A DNA stretch of 64,000 nucleotides from Acidobacteriota bacterium. Its GTDB lineage: Bacteria > Acidobacteriota > Polarisedimenticolia > JAPUKU01. Both the position numbers and the translations under genes were made by a program. This document shows positions 3,050-24,185 of this stretch, piece after piece (the stretch's first letter is position 1; each line of letters starts with the position of its first letter). The notes under the pieces were generated by a model. That model was not told the origin of the DNA. It searched no databases and was given only the letters and a program-made list of their open reading frames with translations. Location: NCBI GenBank assembly GCA_027295505.1, contig JAPUKU010000045.1, positions 20,586 to 84,585 of the forward strand, in the 5' to 3' direction.

Positions 3050-4033
3050 TCAGCGCGGCGGCCGCAGATTGTAGAAGAAGCCGATCGTCACGCCCACATC
3101 CGGACTGGTGAAGATGTCAGGCAGCGGTGGCAACTCCGAGACCTCGATCGATGCCATGGAGGTGTTCTCGAAGGGCGGGACCCCATCCGAGACCCGATAT
3201 CGTCCCCCCGAGTCGGCCCGCACCCCGTATGAGTCAATCAGGGAGATGCCCGAGACACTACCGTCCTGAGCGATCCGGAAGTTGACGACGGCTACTCCTT
3301 TGATGCCGGTGCGAGCCGCAGGTGGAAGCCTGGCGATCCAGTTCCGGCGGATAATACGCAGCATGACCCGCGCGTAAGGCCCCCAATCGATGGCGGCAGT
3401 GTCAAACGAGACCGTGCCCAGTTCCATCGGAGAGAACCCCCCGGGGTTATCAAAACTCTCCTGCAGCTCACGCTCCGAAATACGGGGAACCGACTGCAGG
3501 AGATCTCCCTTCGAAGCCGGCTCTTCCTGCTCTCCGAGACCGGATTCCGCGGGGCTTTCGGGCACGGGCCGATCCGGTTCCATGCCGACGGCCGGGGCCC
3601 CCTCTCCGGCGGCCGCTTCTGCCTCCGTGGCCCCAGGCTGTAGTTCCGCCACCGATTCCTCCGCCTCCGGCTGGGGAAGAACCTGGACTTTCTGGGCAGT
3701 GTTTCCTTCCGTGTACGGATCGGGATCGGTGGGTGCGGGTACCGGATCCGGGCGCTCCTGGCCTCGCGCACGGCGGGAGCGATCGGACAGCGCCTCCGGC
3801 TCGTCGGGTTCGACCTCTGGCTCGTCGGGAATGTCCACGAACTCGAATCGCAACGGCGGATCTTCGGCCTGCTCGAGTGCCAGCAGTTGTTCCGGGCTGA
3901 GCTGAAAGTAGGCGGCGAACGCCTCGGGCGACCGATCGAGCAACCAGGCGATCAGCAGATGCGCCAGAAGTGCTATGAGGAGCGCCTGCCAGAACCGCAG
4001 GCTGTCCCTCTCGGTTTTCTTCCTGTCGTCCAT
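3050..4033 (-). CDS. TonB-family energy transducer
   Basis: N-terminal TM anchor (ALLIALLAHLLIAWLL), a long Pro/Glu-rich spacer (PDEPEVEPDEPE..PVPAPTDPDP), and a C-terminal TonB-type domain (GIKGVAVVNFRIAQDGSVSGISLIDS..). Confidence 0.6.
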   Translation of the reverse strand: MDDRKKTERDSLRFWQALLIALLAHLLIAWLLDRSPEAFAAYFQLSPEQLLALEQAEDPPLRFEFVDIPDEPEVEPDEPEALSDRSRRARGQERPDPVPAPTDPDPYTEGNTAQKVQVLPQPEAEESVAELQPGATEAEAAAGEGAPAVGMEPDRPVPESPAESGLGEQEEPASKGDLLQSVPRISERELQESFDNPGGFSPMELGTVSFDTAAIDWGPYARVMLRIIRRNWIARLPPAARTGIKGVAVVNFRIAQDGSVSGISLIDSYGVRADSGGRYRVSDGVPPFENTSMASIEVSELPPLPDIFTSPDVGVTIGFFYNLRPPR

Positions 4034-4148
4034 CGCGTCCGTTCAATCATCCAGAGAAACGGCCCGCGACTCCGATCCGGGTGGAATCTACGGCCCTACC
4101 CGGTCCCGGGTCGCCCCGCTATCGCCGCGAGCCGCACCCCTGGGATCA

Positions 4149-4706
4149 TCAGGACGCCGGCCGGATCAGGCTGTTGAAGTGCTCCCAGTCAAAGACCGGG
4201 CCGGGATCCGTCTTGCGGCCCGGAGAGATATGGCAGTGTCCGACGATGCGCTCCCGCGTGATATCAGGATACGCCAGCATGAGGGCTTCCGCCAACGCGG
4301 CCAGGCTTCGGTACTGGGCATCTTCGTAGGAGATGTCGTCGGCTCCCTCCAGCTCAACACCGATCGAGAAATCGTTGCAACGCCTCTGTCCCTCGAAGCA
4401 GGATTCCCCCGCGTGCCAGGCCCGGTCATGCAGCGACACATACTGGATCAGGGATGCGTCGCGACGCACGAACAGGTGGCTGGATACTCGCAGGTCCCTG
4501 ATCTTCGGGAAATAGGGGTGGGCGTTCAGATCGAGGCAGTTGCAGAACAGCTGCTCCACCCAGGGGCCTCCGAACTGACCGGGCGGAAGGCTGATGCCAT
4601 GGACCACGAGCAGGCTGACCGGCACACCTTTGGGACGCGCATCAAAGTTAGGTGAGGGCGAAAACTGCGCCCCTTCGACCCGGCCTCTCTGCAGGTCGAT
4701 GTTCAT
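4149..4706 (-). CDS. ampD: 1,6-anhydro-N-acetylmuramyl-L-alanine amidase AmpD
   Basis: Strong collinear similarity to AmpD: SPNFDARP, LLVVHGISLPPGQFGG, RVSSHLFVRRDASLIQYV, RAWHAGES, RCNDFSIGVELEG, GHCHISPGRKTDPGP. I chose the ATG at 4706 (MNIDLQRG...) as the start. Confidence 0.85.
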   Translation of the reverse strand: MNIDLQRGRVEGAQFSPSPNFDARPKGVPVSLLVVHGISLPPGQFGGPWVEQLFCNCLDLNAHPYFPKIRDLRVSSHLFVRRDASLIQYVSLHDRAWHAGESCFEGQRRCNDFSIGVELEGADDISYEDAQYRSLAALAEALMLAYPDITRERIVGHCHISPGRKTDPGPVFDWEHFNSLIRPAS

Positions 4707-4731
4707 GGTCCGTGCGACGTGTGGAGAGGAA

Positions 4732-5709
4732 TCAGCGGGCGACGTGGGAAACGCGCCCGCGCTCCAGGGCTTCGCGAACCCGCTCTCCCACCTCCAGACA
4801 GGCCTGAAGCGCGCGCCGCCCCTGTTGCCCGTCGACCGAGGCTGGCCGGCCATCGCGGACCGCTCCCCAGAAATCCTGCAGTTCCAGGCCCAGAGGCTCA
4901 GCGCGCCGCACCGGCAGCGTACGGCTCACGATCTGCGGAAGGGCGCCCTTCTCGGGCCGGTCAAGGGCGTAATGCAGCACTTCCTGTTGGGAGTAATCGA
5001 GCGACAGGTAGCTCGTGGACTCGAACACCCTCAGCTTGCGCACCTTGCCGACGCTGATGCGGCTGGCCGTGAGGTTGGCGGCGGCTCCGTTGCGAAAGAC
5101 GATGCGGGCGTTGGCAATGTCGAGACGCGAACTAAGAGCCTGAACACCCACGGCATCGATACGCTCCACCTCGGAGCGCACCAGGTTGAGAACCACGTCG
5201 ATGTCATGGATCATGAGATCCAAAATCACGTCGATGTCCAGGCTTCGCGGCTGGAACGAGCCCAGACGGTGGGCCTCGATGAAGCGCGGATCATGGCACA
5301 CCTCTCGCAGCGCCGTCACGGCTGGATTGAACCTCTCGGTGTGACCGACCTGCAACAGCGCCCCTTTCCGTTCGGCAAGAGCAATGAGCCGATCCGCTCC
5401 ATCCAGAGCGGCGGCGATCGGCTTCTCCACGAGCACAGCCACACCACGCTCGAGAAGAGACGCCGTGACAATCTCATGATGCTCGGTGGGTACTGATACC
5501 ACGGCGGCATCCAGCTCGAGGCCGGGCAGATCTCTCACCGCGCAGGCCGGCGCACCGTAGCGTCCCGCAACCTCATGGGCGCGTGCGGAATCGGTATCCA
5601 CCACGCCAACCAGATCCACCTCAGGTGACGCGCTGCACAGACGCACCCGGTGCTCACCGATGTTGCCCGCACCGACCACGGCAACTCTGAGCTTGCGCAA
5701 CGCGGTCAC
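4732..5709 (-). CDS. Gfo/Idh/MocA-family NAD(P)-dependent oxidoreductase (possibly a GnnA-like UDP-GlcNAc 3-dehydrogenase)
   Basis: N-terminal Rossmann motif LRVAVVGAGNIGEHR and an EKP motif (VLVEKPIA); length 325 aa; its start overlaps the lpxA stop by 4 nt. Confidence 0.8.
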   Translation of the reverse strand: MTALRKLRVAVVGAGNIGEHRVRLCSASPEVDLVGVVDTDSARAHEVAGRYGAPACAVRDLPGLELDAAVVSVPTEHHEIVTASLLERGVAVLVEKPIAAALDGADRLIALAERKGALLQVGHTERFNPAVTALREVCHDPRFIEAHRLGSFQPRSLDIDVILDLMIHDIDVVLNLVRSEVERIDAVGVQALSSRLDIANARIVFRNGAAANLTASRISVGKVRKLRVFESTSYLSLDYSQQEVLHYALDRPEKGALPQIVSRTLPVRRAEPLGLELQDFWGAVRDGRPASVDGQQGRRALQACLEVGERVREALERGRVSHVAR

Positions 5710-6485
5710 CGTACCACTCCCCTCTTCGCGCCACGCATGAACTCCGCCAGGTAGCGGACCTCTTCGAAATTTTCGAGTTCCGCCGTCAGCTCAGCGAGCG
5801 ATTGATCGATCGGCAACCTCGAACGCACCAGGACCTGATAGGCCCGGCGCAAAGCCTTGACGGCGTCAGCGCTGAACTGCTTGCGCTTGAGCCCGATGAC
5901 GTTGATGCCGTGGGTCGAGGCACGGTTCCCTACCGTGAGCACGAACGGCAGGGCATCCTGCGTAACGACCGAATAACCGCCGATGTATGCGTGCCGCCCG
6001 ACCCTGCAGAACTGGTGCACACCCGAGAAGGCCCCGATGGTGGCATGATCCTCCACGACGACATGTCCCGCGAGCGTGGCGGCGTTGGCTAACAGCGTGT
6101 GGCTTCCGATCTGGCAGTCGTGGGCGATGTGCGTGTAAGCCATGAAGTAATTATGATCGCCAATGCGAGTCTCTCCCCCCCCGCCCTTCGTCCCGACATG
6201 GACAGTCATGAACTCGCGGAAAACATTGTCACGTCCAATGTGCAGGCGCGTGTGCTCACCCCGAAACTTGAGATCCTGGGGAGGTTGTCCGATTGAGGAG
6301 AAGGGGAAGAAGTGACAGCCTTCCTCGACTACCGTGTCACCCTGCAAGACAACGTGCGAATCAAGCCGACACCCACGCCCCAGGCGCACGCCTGCGCCCA
6401 CCTGGCAAACGGCTCCGATCTCGGTGTCTTCACCAAGTTCCGCTCCGGTCTCGACGATGGCACTGGGGTGTATGCGGGCGATCAG
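5706..6485 (-). CDS. lpxA: acyl-ACP--UDP-N-acetylglucosamine O-acyltransferase LpxA (start codon non-canonical or uncertain)
   Basis: Left-handed beta-helix hexapeptide repeats and LpxA-specific motifs (IGQPPQDLKFRGEHTRLHIGRDNVFREFMTVHVGT, HIAHDCQIG, GINVIGLKR). The in-frame sequence upstream of the first GTG (6401) encodes the conserved LpxA N-terminus ..[24 protein letters not shown], with no ATG/GTG/TTG before it. A CTG at 6483-6485 overlaps the fabZ TGA. Confidence 0.8.
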   Translation of the reverse strand: MIARIHPSAIVETGAELGEDTEIGAVCQVGAGVRLGRGCRLDSHVVLQGDTVVEEGCHFFPFSSIGQPPQDLKFRGEHTRLHIGRDNVFREFMTVHVGTKGGGGETRIGDHNYFMAYTHIAHDCQIGSHTLLANAATLAGHVVVEDHATIGAFSGVHQFCRVGRHAYIGGYSVVTQDALPFVLTVGNRASTHGINVIGLKRKQFSADAVKALRRAYQVLVRSRLPIDQSLAELTAELENFEEVRYLAEFMRGAKRGVVR

Positions 6486-6922
6486 GGCGTCCCCCCCTCG
6501 GCGAGCGCGGAGAGAATCTCCGCTTCCGCCACCAGCGAGCCATCCACGTACGCCCGGCCTTGCATCTTGGCGGCTCGAGAGCGAACCTTGAGCACCTTCA
6601 GCTCCAGACGAAGCTGATCGCCCGGGCGCACCGGTCGGCGGAAGCGAGTCTTGTCAATGCCTGTGAAATAGACGATGCGTCGCTTTTCTTCCGGCAAGCT
6701 GGACAGCAGAAGCACGGCGCCGACCTGGGCCATGGCCTCCACGACGAGCACCCCGGGCATCACCGGATGGCCCGGAAAGTGCCCCTGGAAAAACGGCTCA
6801 TTAAACGATACGGACTTGATCCCCACGGCGCTCTCGCCTTCACGGATTTCAATGATCCGATCCAGGAGCAGAAACGGATAGCGATGGGGCAGGATCTTCT
6901 GAATTTCCTCGACGTTCAGCAC
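6482..6922 (-). CDS. fabZ: 3-hydroxyacyl-ACP dehydratase FabZ
   Basis: 146 aa with hot-dog fold motifs: [36 protein letters not shown]. Confidence 0.95.
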
Positions 6923-6926
6923 GCGA

Positions 6927-7958
6927 TCACCCCTTCCTCCTCTTGCCCTTCACCGGCGCTAGTTTGCCTCGTAAGCGCCGCAATAGATCGGGCAGCCGAC
7001 TTAGTGCCGTGACGATCCGCTTCCACTCTCTGTGGTCGATGGCCGGGTGGCCAATGACAAACGCCCCCGGCGGCAGATCCCGCAGGACAGCGGACTTGGC
7101 GCCCACCCGGGCGCCGTCACCCAGGTTCAGGTGGCCGGCTGCGCCCGACTGCCCCGCCATGGCCACGTCCCGCCCTAGGCGTGTGCTGCCGGCCAGGCCA
7201 CTCTGTGCGGCCAGCGCGCAATGCTCACCGATTTCGACATTGTGCGCCACCTGAACAAGGTTGTCGATCTTGGTGCCACGGGCAATGCGCGTGGGACCGA
7301 GCGTGCCCCGGTCAATGGTCGTATTGGCACCGATCTCGACGTCATCTCCCACTTCTACCCAACCCACCTGCGGGATCTTGCGGTACTCCTCGCCCCGGCG
7401 TGCGAAGCCAAAACCATCGCTTCCGAGGACCGCACCCGCGTGCACGATGACTCGATTTCCGAGAACCGTGCGCCGATAAAGGGTTGCGTTGGGGCACACA
7501 ATCGTGTCCTCACCGATCCGGCATCCGTCTCCGATCACCGCGCCGGACTGGATCTGTGCCCGGGCGCCGACATGGCATTCCCGCCCCAGTACGGCGCCCG
7601 GTTGAATCGTCGCCTGCGGATGGACCGAGCAGTCCGCACCGATTTTCGCCTGCGGATCGATGCCAGCAGCCACCCTCTCAGGGGGATGAAAAATCTCCAG
7701 CACTTCCGATAAGGCCAGATAGGGATCCTCAACCCGGAGAAGGTTGCGGCCGGACAGGCTGCCGCGCTTGGACACCAGCAGAGCACCTGCACGGCTTTCT
7801 CCAGCCCGGCGAGAGTAATCGGCCCGTGCCACGAAAGCCATATGCTCGGGACCGGCATCCTGCAGCGTCCGCACCCCCTGGAGCTTCAGGCCAGAGTCGC
7901 CCTCCACCTCGCCCCCCACCTGGTTGGCGATCTCGCCGAGCGTGATCGAACGCTCCAA
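6927..7958 (-). CDS. lpxD: UDP-3-O-(3-hydroxyacyl)glucosamine N-acyltransferase LpxD
   Basis: 343 aa with an N-terminal LpxD domain plus hexapeptide repeats; sits between skp and fabZ as in the canonical cluster. Confidence 0.9.
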   Translation of the reverse strand: MERSITLGEIANQVGGEVEGDSGLKLQGVRTLQDAGPEHMAFVARADYSRRAGESRAGALLVSKRGSLSGRNLLRVEDPYLALSEVLEIFHPPERVAAGIDPQAKIGADCSVHPQATIQPGAVLGRECHVGARAQIQSGAVIGDGCRIGEDTIVCPNATLYRRTVLGNRVIVHAGAVLGSDGFGFARRGEEYRKIPQVGWVEVGDDVEIGANTTIDRGTLGPTRIARGTKIDNLVQVAHNVEIGEHCALAAQSGLAGSTRLGRDVAMAGQSGAAGHLNLGDGARVGAKSAVLRDLPPGAFVIGHPAIDHREWKRIVTALSRLPDLLRRLRGKLAPVKGKRRKG

Positions 7959-13551: not shown

Positions 13552-14289
13552 TCAGTATTTGACGGCCGGGCTTGCGCTTCCAACCGTCACGTCCTGTCCC
13601 GCCTCTTGCTCACGCAGGACTCCGTCTTCCAGCCTGAGCACCCGGTCACAACGCTGCACCAGACGCTCGTTGTGGCTGGCGAGCACCACGGTCAATCCCC
13701 GGCGCTCGCGCGCGGCGCATAGCAGATCCATCAGCCGCTGGCTGTTGCGCGCATCCAGATTTCCCGTCGGCTCATCCGCCAGCAGCATCGTCGGCTCGTT
13801 GATCAGCGCTCTGGCCACAGCCACGCGCTGCTGCTCGCCACCCGACAGTTCGAACGGGCGATGGGTACTGCGCTCAGCCATGCCAAGCTCCTCGAGAACT
13901 GACTCAGCCCGGCCGCGCGCCACCGCCGCCTGCTCGCCACGAATGCGGAGCGGCATGGCCACATTCTCACAGGCCGTGAACTCCGGCAGTAGCCGGTGGT
14001 TTTGGAACACAAACCCAATCCGGCTGCGGCGGAACCCGTCGGCGCCATCGTCGTCAAGCTCGAGAACATCCTTGCCACAAAACTCATAACTTCCGCTCTC
14101 GGGCCGATCGAGTAGCGCCAGCAGGTTCAGTAACGTACTCTTGCCCACCCCCGAAGAACCCACCACCGCCAGCATCTCACCGCGTCCGGCCATCAGGTTG
14201 AGGCCCTTGAGGACGTCCACACGCCGCACCCCTTCTCCATATCCCTTGACCAGACCTGCACAGCGGATGAACACCGGCTTCTCCCTCAC
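13552..14289 (-). CDS. lolD: lipoprotein-releasing system ATP-binding protein LolD
   Basis: ABC ATPase (GSSGVGKST, LSGGEQQRVAVARAL, LLADEPTGNLD) collinear with E. coli LolD. The GTG start at 14289 overlaps the lolE stop in a GTGA arrangement. Confidence 0.85.
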   Translation of the reverse strand: MREKPVFIRCAGLVKGYGEGVRRVDVLKGLNLMAGRGEMLAVVGSSGVGKSTLLNLLALLDRPESGSYEFCGKDVLELDDDGADGFRRSRIGFVFQNHRLLPEFTACENVAMPLRIRGEQAAVARGRAESVLEELGMAERSTHRPFELSGGEQQRVAVARALINEPTMLLADEPTGNLDARNSQRLMDLLCAARERRGLTVVLASHNERLVQRCDRVLRLEDGVLREQEAGQDVTVGSASPAVKY

Positions 14290-15572
14290 TCGTAGCGCAG
14301 CGCCTCCACAGGAAGCAGCCGCGAGGCCCGCCACGCGGGCACCGCCGCAGCCACCAGAGACAACAGAACGGCAAGTCCTGCCACCGTCGTCAGATCCTCC
14401 CAACGGACCTTGAAGGGAACAAACGAGAGGTAGTAGACCTCCGGCGGCAGAGAAATGACTTGATAGGTGTCCAGGAACCAGCTCATTGCCACTCCAACAG
14501 CACAGCCGACCAGCGTGCCGAGCACCCCGATGAGCAGGCCCTGCAACAGGAAGATGTTCAGGATCTGCCGCCGGGTCGCGCCGAGGGCGCGCAGTGTGCC
14601 CAGATCCCGCATCTTATCCTTCACCGCAAGCAGGAGCGTGGACACGATGTTGAGAGCTGCCACCATGATAATCAATCCGACCGCCAGGAACAGCAGCAGT
14701 TTTTCAAGCCGCATGGCCGAGAAGAAAGGACGGTTCCTCTCGATCAAGTTCGTCACCTGGAAACCGGGTCCCAGTGCCTTTTCAACTTCCTCCTGGGCCA
14801 CCGCCAGCTCCTCGAGATCCCGGATACGAACCTCGATGCCGGTCGCCCCTGCCCCGAGTCCGAACAGCTTCTGAGCCGCCGCCAGGCCCACGTAGGAGCG
14901 CGTCGAATCGTAGTCGTGAAATCCGGCCTCGATCAGACCCACGACCCGAAAGTGTCGGCTTCTTGGACGCAGGCGGAATGGGGTCACATCAACTTGTGGA
15001 ACAAGAAGCTCCACTGTTCCCCCAACGACCACTCCCAAATGATACGCAAGTTCCTTTCCCAGGACAACGCCTTCCTCGCCTGGTTCGGAGCGTGGTAATA
15101 ACCCCTCAAGGTCACCCTCGACCAGATCTCGCGCGAGATCGGTGACCGCGCCCTCACGGAGTACATCAACCCCCTTCAGGAACACTGGCTCCCCGGAGGG
15201 ATTGAGTTCGCTGACGAGAAGGCCTTTCTCGAGGACCACGGGTGCCGCGACTTCGACTTGGGGCAGATCCTGCAGGAGATCGATCAGCGGCTCGACCGGG
15301 TCGATCGGCTTGCCTCCCCATCCGCCGAACACCGTCAAATGAGCGTTGCCCGCCAAGATCCGCTGCTGGACATCCTCCTGGAATCCGGTCATGAGCGCCA
15401 GGGCGATGAGCAGTGCCATGACGCCGACCGCCACCCCGAGGAAAGAGAGCATTGACAGGAGCGCAATGAAGGCGTTGCGGCGCGGCGACAGGGTGTAGCG
15501 AAGAGCAACGTACAGGGAAAAGGCGGGGCTGGCCCTGTTTGGAGGGGGCGAGGCAGGCTCTGGGGGTATCAT
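14286..15572 (-). CDS. lolE: lipoprotein-releasing system permease LolC/LolE (FtsX family)
   Basis: Four TM segments, a large periplasmic loop, an N-terminus (..LYVALRYTL) aligning to LolC/E, and a C-terminal FtsX domain; lies upstream of and coupled to lolD. Confidence 0.8.
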   Translation of the reverse strand: MIPPEPASPPPNRASPAFSLYVALRYTLSPRRNAFIALLSMLSFLGVAVGVMALLIALALMTGFQEDVQQRILAGNAHLTVFGGWGGKPIDPVEPLIDLLQDLPQVEVAAPVVLEKGLLVSELNPSGEPVFLKGVDVLREGAVTDLARDLVEGDLEGLLPRSEPGEEGVVLGKELAYHLGVVVGGTVELLVPQVDVTPFRLRPRSRHFRVVGLIEAGFHDYDSTRSYVGLAAAQKLFGLGAGATGIEVRIRDLEELAVAQEEVEKALGPGFQVTNLIERNRPFFSAMRLEKLLLFLAVGLIIMVAALNIVSTLLLAVKDKMRDLGTLRALGATRRQILNIFLLQGLLIGVLGTLVGCAVGVAMSWFLDTYQVISLPPEVYYLSFVPFKVRWEDLTTVAGLAVLLSLVAAAVPAWRASRLLPVEALRYE

Positions 15573-15618: not shown

Positions 15619-16464
15619 TCATTCCGCCGGACCGGCTTCCTCCGGCTCTTCGCCAGGCCGGCCTCTCGGGAACGGCCCTTCCGCTTCCTCTCCGGTCCGG
15701 CGGCGGGCCTGCCAGGCTCCGCTTCCCGGTCTGCCTCCCGACACATCCATGCTTTGCCAGGTTCCGCGAATGAGCGTGCCCGCCCGGTTGACACTTCCCT
15801 CGAGCTCCATGGAACGACCCAGGCGTGAATCGATGCGGCTCATAAACACCTTTCCGCTGACCAGCGTCCCTTGCAGGCTGCCATGGTGGCCGCCATCCTG
15901 CAAATACTCCCCGGCCAGAACCGTTCCCGATTGCCGGAGGGCGAAGACCGCCCGGCTGCCCCCGGGAGCCAGGGTGACGTCCCAGAGGCCCGAGAGCGAT
16001 TCCGATGGCCCGGGAAGCTGGGCCGCCAGCTCTGCGAGGCGCTGCTCTCCCGCCTGAATCTGTTCTTCCTGTGCCCGCACGGAGTCTCGCAGCACGCGGA
16101 TGCGTTGAGACGAGGAGGCTGCCTCCGCTTCCAGGGCACGAACCTCGTCCTCCATCTGATCGAGGGCTGCACCGCTCGTGGCGCCGTCAGCCGCGGTGGC
16201 GAGCGCGCGGATCTCCTCAAACCTGCGGGCCAGAGCGGCATAGATCCCTTCCCTGCGCACCATTTCACCGTTCAATCTGTCGAGCTCCGATTCCAGTGCG
16301 CTTCTCTGCACCTCGAGGGTGACCTCGAGGTTGAAGATGGCCATGCGAAGGCTCTCTCCCGGCAACCAGTCCTGGGCCCGGCCGGGAGAGAAGGCCACCC
16401 CGAGCAGGAGCGTCGGAATCAGCACCACCCGGGCAGGCAGGTCGTGGGTCCACCGCGATCTCAT
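15619..16464 (-). CDS. hypothetical secreted protein (N-terminal coiled-coil, C-terminal beta-rich domain)
   Basis: Signal peptide (VVLIPTLLLGVAFSPGRAQD), a heptad-like Glu/Ala/Arg-rich stretch, then a Gly/Ser/Thr-rich C-terminus. Its start overlaps the stop of the Asd-like gene by 4 nt. Confidence 0.45.
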   Translation of the reverse strand: MRSRWTHDLPARVVLIPTLLLGVAFSPGRAQDWLPGESLRMAIFNLEVTLEVQRSALESELDRLNGEMVRREGIYAALARRFEEIRALATAADGATSGAALDQMEDEVRALEAEAASSSQRIRVLRDSVRAQEEQIQAGEQRLAELAAQLPGPSESLSGLWDVTLAPGGSRAVFALRQSGTVLAGEYLQDGGHHGSLQGTLVSGKVFMSRIDSRLGRSMELEGSVNRAGTLIRGTWQSMDVSGGRPGSGAWQARRRTGEEAEGPFPRGRPGEEPEEAGPAE

Positions 16465-17489
16465 TCAGGGACAGCTCCGGGCTTGCGGGGCTCAAAGCCG
16501 AGCAGGCGCGCCGCCATCAGAACGGCCCCTTCGGCCGCCGCTGCTTCCACGCGATCCGCCAGCACCCACAGCCACACCCCGCCACCGACCGGATCGTTGC
16601 GGATGAGCCCGACATGGGGCCGCGGGCGTTCCTCGAGCTCGGCGGACGTGAGCGGTCCCGACCCCACCGTGAGTTCGTTCGAGGCACCCAGCAGTTTGCG
16701 CAGCTTCGCCTCGCTGGGCAGATCCTCGATATCCAGGTGCATGACGACGGTGTGGGCATGGAACACCGGCGCCACGGCCATGAACAAGCTTACCGGGAGA
16801 TCGGTCGATCCCATGAGCGCCCGCACCTGCGAGGAGACCAACGTGCTCTGGACGCCGGCGGCCTGCAGCACATCGGTCGGCATCAGGTTGAACGCCAGCT
16901 GCCGGCCAAATACCTGTCGCGGCAACTCCGAGAAATTGAGAAGGTTGACTGACTGCTGGTACAGCTCCTCGAGCCCCACCTTACCGAAATCGGAAGCAGG
17001 CCTCAAAATGACGCCCCGCAGGGCGGTCACTTCGAGATGCGCCGCGAGCGGCGCCACGATTGTGTGCACGAGGTGGGCCAGCGGATGCGCTCCACCTATC
17101 CAACCGCGACGGGGTTTCGGCAGCGCCTCCTGCCGTCCCAGGGCTGCGAAAGGCATCTTCTCGGTGATGTCGGCGGCGTTCGTCAGATCCATCGCCAGAT
17201 AACCGCCGCTCGACGGCCAGTTGCGGTAGGCACCTCCGGTCGCGGGATCCTCGCAAAAGAAGGCGAGCTGAACTCCCTCGAGCGCCTGCTCCTCCGCCTT
17301 CAGGACGATTCTCGGCTCGCCGTTGAACTCCGCCAGGCTTCCCTCGCCCGAACCCGAAGCCAGCAGCCGCACCTCGTTGTACGGGAATGGAGTTTCGGAA
17401 AGCGCTTCGCGCAGCGCCACCGCGAATGGGTCCGTGCCGACGATCGCCAGATCGACAGAACGGCTACGCTTACGGGCCCTCGCTCGCAT
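16461..17489 (-). CDS. aspartate-semialdehyde dehydrogenase (Asd/USG-1) family protein, probably non-catalytic
   Basis: Asd-family landmarks are conserved (ASDFGKVGLEEL, QLAFNLMP, PVFHAHTVVMHLDIE). The NADP motif is degenerate (IVGTDPFAV instead of GATGxVG), and the NCST active-site Cys region is replaced by GAHPLAHLVHT. The ATG at 17489 overlaps the last 20 nt of pssA. Confidence 0.55.
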   Translation of the reverse strand: MRARARKRSRSVDLAIVGTDPFAVALREALSETPFPYNEVRLLASGSGEGSLAEFNGEPRIVLKAEEQALEGVQLAFFCEDPATGGAYRNWPSSGGYLAMDLTNAADITEKMPFAALGRQEALPKPRRGWIGGAHPLAHLVHTIVAPLAAHLEVTALRGVILRPASDFGKVGLEELYQQSVNLLNFSELPRQVFGRQLAFNLMPTDVLQAAGVQSTLVSSQVRALMGSTDLPVSLFMAVAPVFHAHTVVMHLDIEDLPSEAKLRKLLGASNELTVGSGPLTSAELEERPRPHVGLIRNDPVGGGVWLWVLADRVEAAAAEGAVLMAARLLGFEPRKPGAVPE

Positions 17490-18300
17490 CCTGGGCTCCG
17501 AGGGCCGATCCCACCAGGCGACTCCCGGCCCGGCCAAATCGTTTGGGCAGAAAACCCGAGGTGACGTAAGCGAGAGACAACATTGCGAGGAAGGTCGGGG
17601 GATGGTAGGCAAATGTAATGTAGATCAGCGTCACGATGATAATCGCCAGAAACGGTTTGCGCACCATCTGATCGACATTTTTGAGGCTGCGATAGCGAAG
17701 GCGGCTGATCATCAGAATAGCCACGAGGACGACCACCGCCGTCATGGCGCTTACGGCCAGACCATCCGTCACCTGCTCCGGATGGAAATTTACCATGGCG
17801 GCGATCGTGAGTGCCGCGGCAGGAATCGGCAGACCCACGAAGTAGCGCCAGTCTGAGGGGCGGCGCAGGTTGAAGCGTGCCAAGCGTGCGGTTCCGCAGG
17901 CCACGTACAGGAAAGCAACCAGCCAGCCGATACGCCCCAGCAACGAAAGCGCCCAGGTGTGCACCAGGATTGCTGGCGCGATGCCGAATGAGACCACGTC
18001 GCCGAGCGAGTCGAGCTGCAGGCCAAAATCGGTGTTGGTGTGGGTCAGGCGGGCGACCTGGCCATCCACAACGTCAAGAATCGAAGCCCCCAGGATGAGG
18101 AAGGCAGCAAGCTGGTAGCGACCCGCGCCTGCGCAGATGATGGCGTAAAAACCGCAGAACAGGCTGGCAACCGTGAACAGGCTGGGAAGGATGAAGATCC
18201 CGCGTCGAAACCGTGGGGGCATCTTCGGTCGGATGGGGAGCATGAACCTCCTCGGTCGAACGACCTTTGGATCATCCGGCTCTGGCGGACGGGCGTTCAT
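17470..18300 (-). CDS. pssA: CDP-diacylglycerol--serine O-phosphatidyltransferase (CDP-alcohol phosphatidyltransferase family)
   Basis: CDP-OH transferase motif DVVDGQVARLTHTNTDFGLQLDSLGD; multi-TM; adjacent to psd. Confidence 0.8.
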   Translation of the reverse strand: MNARPPEPDDPKVVRPRRFMLPIRPKMPPRFRRGIFILPSLFTVASLFCGFYAIICAGAGRYQLAAFLILGASILDVVDGQVARLTHTNTDFGLQLDSLGDVVSFGIAPAILVHTWALSLLGRIGWLVAFLYVACGTARLARFNLRRPSDWRYFVGLPIPAAALTIAAMVNFHPEQVTDGLAVSAMTAVVVLVAILMISRLRYRSLKNVDQMVRKPFLAIIIVTLIYITFAYHPPTFLAMLSLAYVTSGFLPKRFGRAGSRLVGSALGAQDASEGP

Positions 18301-18304
18301 GCGG

Positions 18305-18988
18305 TTACGGTCCGGACGCAGGCTCCGTGCTGCGTGCCAACGGCGTCAGGCCTCCCCGTACATGATCTCCGACGCTCACTTGCCATTCTACTGGATCCCG
18401 GAAAAGCACTTCAACGCGGGAACCCATGCGGATCAGGCCTACCTTCTCGCCAGCGCTGACCCGATCTCCGGGCTGCTTCCAGGCTATGATGCGGCGGGCC
18501 AGCACACCCGATATCTGCCGAAAGAGGATAGCGCTGTTCTGTCCCTGCAACCACCATGTAAAGCGTGTGTTCTCCTCGCTGGCCCGCGGGTGGAACGCAG
18601 CGTGAAATCGCCCCGGGCGGTGTTCGATGCGCTCGATGCGCGCAGAGATCGGCGAGCGGTTGACGTGCACGTCCCAGATCGACAAAAAGATGGCAATGCG
18701 CTTGCCGAATCCAAGAGCGCGTCCCTCCTCATCTGCCTCACCCATCTCCACCACCCGGCCGTCCGCGGGAGAAAGCACGAGCCTGGGATCCTCGGGGGGC
18801 GTACGCTTCGGGTCCCGGAAGAAGAACCCCACACTTGCTGCAAGCAGGACCACGACCATTGCGGCCGGAATCCACCCGATCCACACCAGGGTCACGGCCA
18901 CCACTGCCATCACCGCAACCGCCACGTACCCGTCTCTAACCATCTCAACCGCCTCTCGAGCCTCGTTCTCCGAAATCAGCTGGCACAA
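18305..18988 (-). CDS. psd: phosphatidylserine decarboxylase (short, archaeal-type Psd proenzyme)
   Basis: N-terminal TM anchor, PSD-family motifs (LSPADGRV, FLSIWDVHVNRSPI), and a C-terminal GS site in IRMGSRVEV for self-cleavage and pyruvoyl formation. Confidence 0.8.
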   Translation of the reverse strand: MCQLISENEAREAVEMVRDGYVAVAVMAVVAVTLVWIGWIPAAMVVVLLAASVGFFFRDPKRTPPEDPRLVLSPADGRVVEMGEADEEGRALGFGKRIAIFLSIWDVHVNRSPISARIERIEHRPGRFHAAFHPRASEENTRFTWWLQGQNSAILFRQISGVLARRIIAWKQPGDRVSAGEKVGLIRMGSRVEVLFRDPVEWQVSVGDHVRGGLTPLARSTEPASGP

Positions 18989-19039
18989 AAAAGGGGCCTT
19001 GCGGGCCCCTCAATTCTAGCGCCTTCGTGGGCGATCTCC

Positions 19040-21900: not shown

Positions 21901-22121
21901 GGCTGTGGACGCGCGTCTATATTTAATGCGCGCCCAAGCCAGCGTCAAACTCGACAGGATGGCCAGCGTAGGTTTTTTTCCACAGAGTGGTAATTTTTTT
22001 GACAGGGGGCGGTGCCAGGACTATATTAGGTCACGCGCCGTCGTAACCTACGGTGTCTATGGGAGTTGTTCCCACAACCCCGTGGGTTCAGGCGGCCAGC
22101 CCAGGTAGGAGGATGCCAATT

Positions 22122-24185
22122 ATGCCCACCGGTCTCGGAATTCTCAACGTCATCGGCGAAATGCAGGACTTGCGGGGATTCCGCGAGCAGCATTGGGAAG
22201 GCGGCTTCGAGGAATACCTGGATATTGTCCAGAAGCATCCCGAGGTCGCACGCTCCGCGTTCCAGCGCGTCTACGACATGATCCTCGCGAAGGGCACCCG
22301 GGAATACTTCGAGTACAAGAAGAAAATTATCCACTACAACTTCTTCGATGATCCGGACCGTGATGGCAGGGACGCGGTCTACGGCCTCGACATCCCTCTC
22401 ATGAAAATGGTCAACATCTTCAAGGCTGCCGCCAACCGCTACGGCACCGAAAAACGAGTGTTGCTGCTGCACGGTCCGGTCGGCTCGGCGAAGAGCACGA
22501 TTGTGCGCCTGCTTAAGAAGGGTCTCGAGGACTACACGCGCACGCCCGAAGGCGCCCTGTACACGTTTCGCTGGATGCTCGAGGACACCGGCGGCCGCAA
22601 GGCCACCGCCGATATTCATGAGTTTCCGTGCCCCATGTTCGAAGATCCGCTGCACCTCATTCCGTCCGAGAGCCGGCAGAAAGTGCTGGATATGCTCAAC
22701 CACAACCTGCCTCCCGAGCGGCGCGTCGTTGTGGCCGGAGACCTTTGCCCCGCATGCCGGCAATACTTCAAAGAGTTCAACCTGCGCTACAACGGTGATT
22801 GGATCAAGATCATTCAGCACATTCGCGTCCAGCGGCTGACCCTGAGCGAGAAGGACCGCGTGGGCATCGGCACCTTTCAGCCGAAAGACGAAAAGAACCA
22901 GGACTCGACCGAGCTCACCGGCGACATCAATTACCGGAAGATCGCTGAGTACGGATCGGATTCGGACCCGCGGGCGTTCAACTTTGACGGAGAGTTCAAT
23001 GTTGCGAACCGCGGCCTCGTCGAATTCATCGAGGTCCTGAAGCTCGACGTGGCTTTCCTATATGACCTGCTCGGCGCCTCTCAGGAGCACAAGGTCAAGC
23101 CCAAGAAGTTCGCCCAGACCGACATTGATGAGGTCATCATTGGCCACACGAACGAGCCAGAATACCGCCGGCTCCAGAACAATGAGTTCATGGAGGCCCT
23201 GCGTGACCGCACGGTCAAGATTGACGTGCCCTACATCACCAAACTCGACCAGGAGGTTAAGATCTATCTGAAGGACTACTGCCCCGACCGCATTCGTGGC
23301 AAGCACATAGCCCCTCACACCATTGAGATGGCAGCCATGTGGGCAGTCCTCACTCGTCTGGAAGATCCGAAGAAGGCCGACCTGACCCTGCTGCAGAAGC
23401 TCAAGCTGTATAACGGCAAGACACTCCCCGGCTTCACCGAGGACAACGTCAAGGAGCTCAGAAAAGAGGCGCAGCGCGAGGCCATGGAGGGCATTTCGCC
23501 GCGCTACATTCAGGACAAGATTTCCAATGCTCTGGTCTCGGAACGCGGCGACGGATGCGTCAACCCCTTCATGGTGCTGAACGAGCTGGAGAGCGGACTC
23601 CGCCACCACTCCCTGATCAACAGCGAGGACGTGCGCAAGCGTTACCGCGACCTTCTGCAGGTGACCAAGCAGGAGTACGAGGACATCACCAAGAACGAGG
23701 TCCAACGCGCCATTTCGGCCGACGAGGAGTCGATCTCGCGCCTGTGCGGCAACTACATCGACAACATCAAGGCCTACACGCAAAAAGAAAAAGTGCGTAA
23801 CAAGTACACCGGCCAGGACGAGGAGCCGGTTGAGCGCCTGATGCGGTCAATCGAGGAAAAGATCGACATCCCGGAGAATCGCAAGGAGGATTTCCGCCGG
23901 GAGATCATGAACTACATTGGCGCTCTGGCGGTCGAAGGAAAAACGTTCAACTACCGCACGAATGAGCGCCTGCACAAGGCTCTCGAGCTCAAGCTCTTCG
24001 AGGATCAGAAGGATTCGATCAAACTCACCAGCCTGGTCTCCAGTGTCGTCGACCGCGACACCCAGGAGAAGATTGACGTCGTCAAGGCGCGGCTCATCAA
24101 GGATTACGGCTATTGTGAGGTCTGCTCCACCGACGTCCTCAACTACATCGCCAGCATCTTCGCGCGTGGCGACGTGAAGAGCTGA
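22122..24185 (+). CDS. prkA: PrkA-family AAA+ serine protein kinase
   Basis: Collinear with PrkA/YeaG ([24 protein letters not shown]; Walker [12 protein letters not shown]). I preferred the ATG at 22122 because AGGAGG lies 9 nt upstream of it. Confidence 0.9.

Follow-up and report, generated by a model that had tools for sequence, protein, structure and literature searches.

In a 64,000-nt stretch of DNA from an Acidobacteriota bacterium, hereafter the window, we found a gene encoding a cysteine-less, USG-like homologue of aspartate-semialdehyde dehydrogenase (ASADH, Asd) next to the genes for phosphatidylserine (PS) synthase and PS decarboxylase. Throughout the Acidobacteriota, the third cistron of the psd-pssA-X unit is this USG-like gene, usually with overlapping stop and start. 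The encoded protein is best explained as cytoplasmic, with the two domains of the ASADH fold, and as a probable member of a Cys-less 'USG-like' radiation of Asd paralogues. We give roughly even odds (a probability of about 0.5) to a function other than that of an ASADH, in which the protein would assist or regulate PssA, possibly Psd as well, by means of the remodelled former active-site cleft.

The USG-like gene occupies positions 16461 to 17489 on the minus strand and encodes 342 aa plus stop. Its start codon is the ATG at 17489, which lies 20 nt inside pssA (stop codon at 17470-17472) and agrees with the 342-aa NCBI protein P0001 (99% identical) as well as with the N-termini of homologues. 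As the preliminary description of this DNA had stated, the two genes thus overlap, and we read the overlap from the sequence as 20 nt at 17470 to 17489 (minus strand). Such an arrangement is consistent with translational coupling. A putative Shine-Dalgarno GGAG, so named from its resemblance to the consensus only, is found within pssA 6 nt 5' of the ATG (17496 to 17499, minus strand; CTCGGAGCCCAGGATG). At the other end, the stop codon of the USG-like gene and the ATG of the next ORF share the sequence ATGA at 16461-16464, which bears out the overlap previously noted with the start of a secreted coiled-coil protein. The peptides quoted in the preliminary description were all found in the 342-aa translation, with IVGTDPFAV at residues 16-24, GAHPLAHLVHT at 133-143, ASDFGKVGLEEL at 165-176, QLAFNLMP at 197-204 and PVFHAHTVVMHLDIE at 241-255.

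Upstream of the USG-like gene the window encodes for the two enzymes of PS and phosphatidylethanolamine (PE) synthesis. The pssA gene (17470 to 18300, minus strand) encodes a PS synthase of the CDP-alcohol phosphatidyltransferase type (PF01066, 67.2 bits; TIGR00473, 127.8 against a cut-off of 107), and psd (18305 to 18988, minus strand) encodes a PS decarboxylase of the short type (PF02666, 131.8 bits; NF003678, 205.9 and below the cut-off of 225). Conservation of the gene at this position in related genomes, which had been proposed as a check, was evident: among the 79 loci with enough flanking sequence, pssA was located directly 5' of the USG-like gene on the same strand in 76, and psd was likewise located 5' in 63 of 74 loci. 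The pssA stop overlapped the USG-like start in 40 of the 76 loci, mostly by 20, 14, 11 or 4 nt, and the identical 20-nt overlap recurred in relatives of 31-85% identity. Adjacency to pssA was found in four sequence subtypes that share just 27-35% identity. Two genomes of Thermoanaerobaculia (L083 and L084) keep the USG-like gene beside bcp and apart from psd-pssA. This conserved adjacency predicts a functional link, but not the nature of that link. No paper that connects pssA or psd with a protein resembling Asd or USG emerged from a full-text literature search, and the lipocone paper makes no mention of a USG-like protein. In a scan for promoters and terminators the only convincing hairpin was at 19011-18991, 5' of psd; terminator-like sites were not enriched (9 versus 7.5 in shuffled sequence).

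The genes on the 3' side were far less constant. The next ORF in the window (15619 to 16464, minus strand) encodes 281 aa with a signal peptide, a helical hairpin and a beta-rich C-terminus, and showed weak coiled-coil Pfam matches only. It was conserved in 24 loci, and a single-sequence AF2 prediction gave confident helices at residues 35-91 and 97-147, with pLDDT below 50 for the remainder. A divergent LptE was considered for this protein and rejected, as the hhalign probability was 0.25% when 23 aligned sequences were compared with two LptE. It is followed by a LolC/E-like permease gene (14286 to 15572, minus strand; PF12704 and PF02687; TIGR02212, 329.8 against a cut-off of 362) and a LolD-like ABC ATPase gene (13552 to 14403, minus strand; PF00005; TIGR02211, 235.8 against 308), the real start of which is probably near 14280 given homologues of 239-246 aa. 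For both genes the Lol models were the best match, though below their cut-offs. Lol genes follow in the clade of the window and its relatives, lptE-holA with a true LptE lipoprotein in Terriglobales, and a Bcp peroxiredoxin gene in Thermoanaerobaculia. Apparent fusions of the USG-like gene to Bcp (or to another gene) at two loci, L073 and L032, were rejected, with an in-frame stop in both. The Lol genes in the window are therefore a lineage-specific neighbourhood and not a core association, and since the 3' neighbours change by lineage, the conserved link is to PS/PE synthesis. The preliminary description had placed the gene in an operon with both PS synthesis and lipoprotein trafficking genes; the former association holds in 76 of 79 loci, while the latter is confined to the window's clade and relatives.

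Homology of the USG-like protein to Asd is far above chance. It matched PF02774 with 33.6 bits (E 5.6e-8), whereas PF01118 scored 16.8 bits and thus under its cut-off of 26, and phmmer against the PDB returned 2hjs (E 1.1e-19) and 2qz9 (1e-17). The AF2 model (pLDDT 81.7, pTM 0.83) was matched by Foldseek to V. cholerae Asd2 (2r00/2qz9; TM 0.80, E 8.6e-25) and to the P. aeruginosa USG-1 homologue 2hjs (TM 0.80-0.82, rmsd 3.0 A). Both the Rossmann and the dimerisation/catalytic domain of the ASADH fold were present according to the model and the Foldseek matches, and the Asd/USG-1 scaffold recognised earlier from the sequence was thereby confirmed. On the basis of this fold the protein is presumably dimeric like other ASADHs. 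With the curated Asd and Usg models it scored 68-90 bits against cut-offs of 223-628. It stayed below the equivalog level for TIGR01296 (68.7 against 324.2) and NF011456 (77.2 against 223), and reached 87 bits with NF004224 of the PRK05671 type (cut-off 284) and 90.3 bits with NF005957 of the E. coli Usg type (cut-off 273), for which E. coli Usg itself scored 683.5. Scores against Usg-type and beta-Asd models were about equal and their order varied among subtypes; the motifs GRQLAFN and QAPVF, which the protein has in common with Usg, speak for a placement on the USG side.

Residue columns were compared in a MAFFT alignment of 150 sequences including E. coli Asd. The nucleophile Cys135 of E. 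coli Asd corresponds to Pro136 in the USG-like protein and the preceding Asn134 to His135 (codons CAT CCG, 17082 to 17087, minus strand). All four substrate- or phosphate-binding positions differ, with Arg102 replaced by Asp107, Gln162 by Arg163, Glu241 by Gln214 and Arg267 by Val239, and the oxyanion residues are lost as well. The acid/base residue His274 is retained as His246, within the codons CAT GCC CAC for His244-Ala-His246 (16752 to 16760, minus strand), of which His244 is family-specific. Pairwise HMMER alignments placed Ala138 or His135 instead of Pro136 in the Cys column, and neither these nor the MAFFT alignment placed a Cys there. A Cys in the nucleophile column was found in 0 of 83 aligned family members and, with few exceptions, was also missing from the 150 best cluster representatives. 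The NADP-binding loop is a degenerate remnant of the GxxGxxG type: aligned to IVGATGAVG, the protein reads IVGTDPFAV (codons at 17418 to 17444, minus strand), i.e. GTDPFAV versus the GATGAVG of true Asd and E. coli Usg. The losses of the GxTGxVG motif and of the catalytic Cys motif, both claimed previously, are thus upheld by the alignment, the former also by the PF01118 score, and the suggested comparison with Cys135 and His274 of E. coli Asd gave a proline and a retained histidine. Judged from these residues, the protein is predicted to be unable to reduce aspartyl phosphate. The term pseudoenzyme used in the preliminary description is apt only in that the protein cannot be an ASADH; it may have a ligand-binding or new catalytic role, because residues conserved in the family occupy the old active-site columns.

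Cys-less Asd homologues are already known as a kind, and the present protein is a distinct variant of it. They are widespread and routinely annotated as aspartate-semialdehyde dehydrogenase. A 2025 review describes a whole USG branch of the GapDH superfamily without catalytic residues, of which nothing more is known (PMC12041015), and the window protein shows the combination by which that branch is defined, i.e. the ASADH fold and the loss of the catalytic residues. E. coli Usg (b2319; NF005957 = PRK08040) has likewise lost the Cys, with VPDSLTSQ in place of NPNCSTIQ of Asd, and shares with the window protein the GRQLAFN and (Q/V)APVF(Y/H)(G/A)H motifs and the loss of the Arg267 equivalent. 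The two are just 26% identical, however, and in E. coli Usg GATGAVG is intact and PF01118 is matched in full (100.8 bits), whereas the window protein is without this loop; His135-Pro136, Pro164 and His244 of the window family are not found in E. coli Usg. A profile of GATG-containing USG-like sequences led to proteobacterial proteins annotated as Usg or Asd. Of the solved structures, 2hjs (the USG-1 homologue of P. aeruginosa, NF004224 = PRK05671 type) is closest in sequence to the window protein, but differs from it in that the active-site loop (SSPCAVA) still has its Cys, a loop of the GxxGxxG type is present and the catalytic His is missing (QAPVFFGDS). Beta-type Asd (V. cholerae Asd2, 2qz9/2r00; TIGR01296, NF011456) shares the fold (TM 0.79-0.81), domain order and length of the window protein. 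Still present in the latter are the counterpart of His274, the AFN motif and, from the DxS and SGxG loops, the Asp and the Ser, respectively; substitutions affect the Cys, the Gln, two Arg and the Glu as well as the whole NADP loop. Gene context differs as well, being pdxB-usg-truA-dedA in E. coli and leuB-usg-fimV-truA on a betaproteobacterial contig, as opposed to psd-pssA-X in the window and the majority of its relatives.

At least 170 genomes at species level, nearly all of Acidobacteriota, encode a relative of the window protein, and 828 clusters (50% identity) scored E<=1e-30 against the family profile. None of the best 120 matches in a search with the Terriglobia-type profile came from a named cultured strain. 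Family-wide conserved residues are His135 and Pro136 (each in 78 of 83 members), Pro164-Ala-Ser166, Arg196-Gln-Leu-Ala-Phe-Asn201 (82-83 of 83; codons at 16887 to 16904, minus strand; compare GRQLAFN in E. coli Usg) and Phe243-His244-x-His246 (His244 in 74 and His246 in 79 of 83), all of which correspond to former active-site columns. The dN/dS of the USG-like gene was 0.23 between the window and a related locus (L006) and 0.07-0.15 in pairs of Thermoanaerobaculia, compared to 0.27 for pssA, and the reading frame was intact in every relative inspected. The gene is thus shown to be under purifying selection.

In the accessory role that we propose, translational coupling would lead to joint production of the USG-like protein and the membrane PS synthase, and on the way from PS to PE the USG-like protein would serve PssA, possibly also Psd, as a non-redox partner. 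Its conserved cleft (His135, Pro136, Pro164-Ala-Ser, Arg196-Asn201, Phe243-His246) might bind a small anionic ligand or a segment of the partner. In the one proteobacterial usg context inspected, leuB-usg-fimV-truA, lipid genes were absent; a role in lipid synthesis, if real, may therefore be clade-specific.

Judged by its residues, the conserved pocket appears compatible with a new catalytic activity at least as well as with a regulatory role. A neofunctionalised enzyme, which we regard as possible and clearly less probable than the accessory partner, might carry out new, cofactor-independent chemistry at the His-rich site formed by His135, His244 and His246 with Arg196, Ser166 and Asn201. 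A hydrolase or transferase that depends on a metal or on His is conceivable, with a phosphorylated or serine-containing intermediate of the CDP-DAG, PS or PE pathway as its substrate. The clustering of the family-wide conserved residues on the former active-site columns, rather than scattered through the protein, argues for this explanation, as do the retention of the His274 equivalent, the family-specific His135 and His244 and the tight operon link with psd-pssA. However, we know of no missing step in the canonical PE pathway that such an enzyme would fill, no hydrolase or transferase family was matched in Pfam or the curated models, and the Gln162-equivalent position (Q, R or E depending on the subtype) and residues 167-169 vary, which would be unusual for a fixed catalytic site.

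It is improbable, in our estimation, that the protein is a dead paralogue forming heterodimers with genuine Asd and thereby coupling the supply of diaminopimelate and lysine for peptidoglycan to envelope biogenesis, with the proximity to psd-pssA reflecting co-regulation in an envelope super-operon. Pseudoenzymes often act on their active paralogues, which speaks for such a function, and the run of envelope genes in the window (lol, bamA, skp, lpxD and an lpxA-like gene) would fit it. The dimerisation domain is also the best kept part of the protein, with PF02774 above and PF01118 below the cut-off, and half-of-sites reactivity is described for ASADH, an obligate dimer (PMC12041015). Identity to true Asd is only about 25%, however, and a specific heterodimer is not evident from it. 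No canonical asd was located nearby in any inspected locus, nor in the 64,000 nt of the window, where the USG-like gene was the only match when E. coli Asd and four further true Asd sequences served as tblastn queries. Moreover, the constant feature is the overlap with pssA, while the wider cluster is missing in Thermoanaerobaculia and Terriglobales.

A working reductase of aspartate semialdehyde (or of an acyl-phosphate or acyl-CoA) with another nucleophile such as Cys79 and an atypical cofactor site is very improbable. Cys79 is found in 77 of 83 members, the catalytic His is kept, and JGI annotations of family members read aspartate-semialdehyde dehydrogenase; these annotations are automatic, however. 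Cys79, the sole Cys of the protein, falls in the column of Cys72 of E. coli Asd, a non-catalytic residue of the Rossmann domain away from the active site; this column holds Ser in beta-type Asd and Val in Usg. The substrate- and phosphate-binding residues and the GxxGxxG loop are all replaced, and scores are far under the equivalog cut-offs. Lastly, a functionless relic, i.e. an asd duplicate that persists in the operon while it decays, as the loss of catalytic residues alone might suggest, is effectively refuted by dN/dS values of 0.07-0.23 that are as low as that of pssA, by intact frames in the inspected relatives, by occurrence in at least 170 genomes, by motifs that are invariant at about 30% identity and by the confident AF2 fold.

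In its strongest form, the partnership with PssA would make the USG-like protein an obligatory subunit, non-catalytic or else newly catalytic, of the CDP-alcohol-type PS synthase/decarboxylase machinery in the membrane, and a component that controls PE synthesis. We put this forward tentatively and hold it rather unlikely; if true, it would be an unrecognised component of this machinery and the first function for any member of the Cys-less 'USG' radiation. The start-overlapping, phylum-wide link to psd-pssA is the first reproducible context clue for one clade of USG proteins, and raises the possibility that 'dead' relatives of Asd, which form a large clade, serve membrane-lipid synthesis. Regulation of bacterial type-II PS synthase and PE synthesis is poorly understood, and should the link be functional, it would add an unexpected soluble component to this system. 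For metabolic reconstructions of Acidobacteriota it means that the USG-like gene should not be counted as Asd.

The USG-like gene (window 16461..17489, minus strand) comprises 342 codons and begins with ATG, and the five peptides quoted from it in the preliminary description were all found at the positions reported there. Its ATG, with a GGAG 6 nt to the 5' side as read from the sequence, is located 20 nt within the upstream ORF (TAA stop 17470-17472), and its TGA and the start codon of the following ORF share the tetranucleotide ATGA (16461-16464). The coordinates thus bear out both overlaps described before, that of the start with the end of pssA and that of the stop with the following ORF. 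An alternative TTG start at 17612 was considered unlikely because the 99% identical NCBI protein (P0001) also comprises 342 aa and homologues down to 50% identity start at the same point. Long plus-strand ORFs over the region were regarded as shadow ORFs of GC-rich sequence, as homology, dN/dS and synteny all favoured the minus-strand frame for this gene.

The encoded protein showed homology to aspartate-semialdehyde dehydrogenase (ASADH, Asd). Pfam searches detected the Asd dimerisation/catalytic domain PF02774 with 33.6 bits and the NAD-binding domain PF01118 with 16.8 bits, below its threshold of 26, and the NCBIfam Asd and Usg equivalogs aligned end to end with 28-90 bits versus cut-offs of 223-628. 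Top relatives of solved structure were 2hjs, a USG-1 homologue from P. aeruginosa (E 1e-19), and 2qz9, Asd2 from V. cholerae (E 1e-17), to both of which an AF2 model built from 15 family sequences (pLDDT 81.7, pTM 0.83) was matched by Foldseek with a TM of 0.80. As sequence and structure searches agree, the predicted ASADH fold is beyond doubt. Catalytic columns were mapped by aligning E. coli asd and usg (from NC_000913) with 150 sequences. Cys135 of E. coli Asd, the nucleophile, corresponded to Pro136, Asn134 to His135, Gln162 to Arg163, Arg102 to Asp107, Glu241 to Gln214 and Arg267 to Val239, and His274 was retained as His246. No alignment made in this check, which the preliminary description had proposed, placed a Cys at the nucleophile position, and GTDPFAV stood in place of the N-terminal dinucleotide motif GxxGxxG (GATGAVG in beta-type Asd and Usg), so that both losses noted earlier were confirmed. 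The comparison showed that the protein should be unable to perform the ASADH reaction as understood today. The earlier term pseudoenzyme holds for this chemistry only.

We found 16 relatives carrying PF02774 only (P0002-P0017) in a first protein search, and relatives in at least 170 genomes in a scan in which each GTDB species was represented by one genome. The best 80 of these 170 were nearly all Acidobacteriota MAGs, from Thermoanaerobaculia, Polarisedimenticolia, Terriglobia and subdivisions gp7, gp11 and gp22. Among 1.8 billion cluster representatives searched with a profile, 828 matched at E≤1e-30, and nearly all of the best 150 were without the nucleophile Cys. Four sequence subtypes could be distinguished, with only 27-35% identity to the window protein. 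In an 83-member family alignment the nucleophile column held Pro in 78 sequences and Cys in none. Pro164 and each of Gln197, Leu198, Ala199, Phe200 and Asn201 were invariant, followed by Arg196 and Phe243 (82 each), Ala165 (81), His246 (79), His135 and Ser166 (78 each) and His244 (74). These conserved residues fall on former active-site columns, which argues for a putative pocket maintained in the family rather than a mere scaffold. Five contigs labelled Binatia, a Patescibacteria group, Verrucomicrobiia or Acidimicrobiia (L010, L012, L041, L053, L076) shared the psd-pssA-USG-like synteny, some of them also carrying Lol genes, with those of Acidobacteriota; mis-binning or mislabelling of MAG contigs is the probable cause.

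The minus-strand gene order in the window is GGDEF-PilZ, tsaB, rimI-like acetyltransferase, DUF465, psd, pssA and the USG-like gene, followed by a secreted helical-hairpin protein of 281 aa, lolC/E-like, lolD-like, clpC-like, bamA, skp, lpxD and lpxA-like genes, and this order was found again in relatives of 31-53% identity. For the suggested check of position in related genomes, 79 fetched loci had 1 kb or more of sequence on the upstream side, and in 76 of them the gene directly before the USG-like gene was pssA, in the same orientation; psd was also upstream in 63/74. The pssA stop and USG-like start overlapped in 40 loci, mostly by 20, 14, 11 or 4 nt, and were 0-30 nt apart in 16 more. This arrangement showed a gene predicted to be co-transcribed with pssA and very probably translationally coupled to it. 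A strong terminator-like hairpin that separates the DUF465 gene from the start of psd (18991-19011, minus strand; 8 pairs, 6 of them G-C, then a T-run) suggests that the psd-pssA-USG-like unit may start its own transcript or be reached by read-through; terminator-like sites across the region were no commoner than in shuffled sequence. Upstream of the GGDEF-PilZ gene lies a divergent PrkA gene (22053-24185, plus strand; AAA_PrkA and PrkA domains), and in the related locus L001 (1-3313) DUF444 and SpoVR come after PrkA, which gives the conserved trio of PrkA-YeaH-YcgB type.

Downstream neighbours depended on lineage. In the window clade, Polarisedimenticolia and gp22-type loci the secreted protein and lolCE-lolD-clpC follow. 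In Terriglobales the USG-like gene overlaps each of its two neighbours by 4 nt and is followed by the gene of a true LptE lipoprotein and by holA; the unit psd-pssA-USG-like-lptE-holA spans 3437-7716 in locus L090 and 3500-7694 in L091, with classical LptE lipoboxes (LVGC, LGGC), and in L091 the gene immediately before psd encodes an AhpC-TSA/Redoxin protein of 423 aa. Thermoanaerobaculia carried a Bcp-type peroxiredoxin (AhpC-TSA, 136.8 bits; L050 7060-7548, L022 1404-1892, L073 6949-7434, L083 6951-7427) 0-37 nt downstream and then an ECF sigma factor. This peroxiredoxin gene followed in 45 loci, including two Thermoanaerobaculia loci that retain the pair without psd-pssA. Since pssA is upstream in 76 of 79 loci and the downstream neighbour varies, the invariant association is with phosphatidylserine synthase and not with Lol. 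The proposed placement in a lipid/Lol operon therefore held for psd-pssA and not for Lol as a conserved partner; with this correction and the narrower sense of pseudoenzyme, the preliminary interpretation was essentially right.

The 281-aa protein (15619-16464, minus strand) has a signal peptide, no lipobox Cys and no Pfam family, and is conserved in 24 loci, where it is flanked by the USG-like gene and lolCE. Its helical hairpin (residues 35-91 and 97-147) was modelled confidently and its beta-rich C-terminus poorly. An identity as LptE was rejected (hhalign probability 0.25%); as its gene directly precedes lolCE-lolD, the protein may be a periplasmic partner of the Lol-like transporter. The lolD-like ORF (13552-14403, minus strand, 283 aa) has a TTG start and overlaps lolCE by 118 nt, and as homologues comprise 239-246 aa, its real start is probably near 14280.

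We propose that the USG-like protein might be a non-redox partner of the integral-membrane PssA, possibly also of Psd, with an accessory or regulatory role in the PS/PE branch, and that its remodelled cleft would bind a ligand or partner segment; we give this reading a probability of about one half. A plausible rationale would be that E. coli controls its peripheral type-I PssA through the partitioning of the enzyme onto anionic membranes. To our knowledge this mode of regulation is not open to an integral type-II enzyme, for which a soluble sensor might be needed. The very basic N-terminus of the window clade (MRARARKRSRS), which other subtypes do not have, would fit membrane association. The idea that an Asd-type pocket might recognise phosphoserine as a head group similar to aspartyl phosphate is weakened by the loss of Arg267, Glu241 and Arg102. 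The conserved histidines could instead belong to a new enzyme using a His135/His244/His246 cluster, which we consider rather unlikely, and a heterodimeric regulator of a true Asd appears improbable. Cryptic reductase activity through Cys79 (codon 17253-17255, minus strand), the sole Cys of the protein, is very improbable: its counterpart in E. coli Asd is Cys72, which is non-catalytic and lies in Rossmann-domain strand 4. Cys79 (FFC[G/E]) is kept in 77/83 family members and is Ser in beta-type Asd and Val in E. coli Usg. A relic can practically be dismissed, as the gene is under ordinary purifying selection and belongs to a conserved family (dN/dS 0.23 against locus L006 and 0.07-0.15 in three Thermoanaerobaculia pairs; 0.27 for the adjoining pssA).

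E. coli Usg, as read from the genome, is likewise without the nucleophile Cys (VPDSLTSQ) and has GRQLAFN and QAPVFYGH in common with the window protein. It keeps GATGAVG, whereas the acidobacterial family has additionally lost this dinucleotide loop, scores below the curated cut-offs of both Usg and Asd models, has its own conserved residues (His135-Pro136, Pro164, His244) and stands in a different and far more informative genomic context. According to a 2025 review of aldehyde dehydrogenase superfamilies, all catalytic amino acids have been lost throughout the USG branch and in some Asd2-affiliated sequences, with no further information available on either group (PMC12041015); in the part consulted of a study on Salmonella pdxB-usg-truA-dedA, usg is described only as a putative aspartate-semialdehyde dehydrogenase (PMC6358828). 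A catalytically dead Asd paralogue is therefore an already known kind of protein, and the family is not a new category of system. Our literature search found no report linking an Asd-like or USG-like gene to pssA or psd, and the phylum-wide operon link is robust and apparently unreported. Cys-less family members are named aspartate-semialdehyde dehydrogenase by JGI, and NCBIfam gives its E. coli Usg model NF005957 this product name as well, so that these genomes may be credited in automated metabolic reconstructions with an Asd that is possibly absent at this locus. The operon link makes the function of this orphan pseudo-dehydrogenase clade experimentally approachable.
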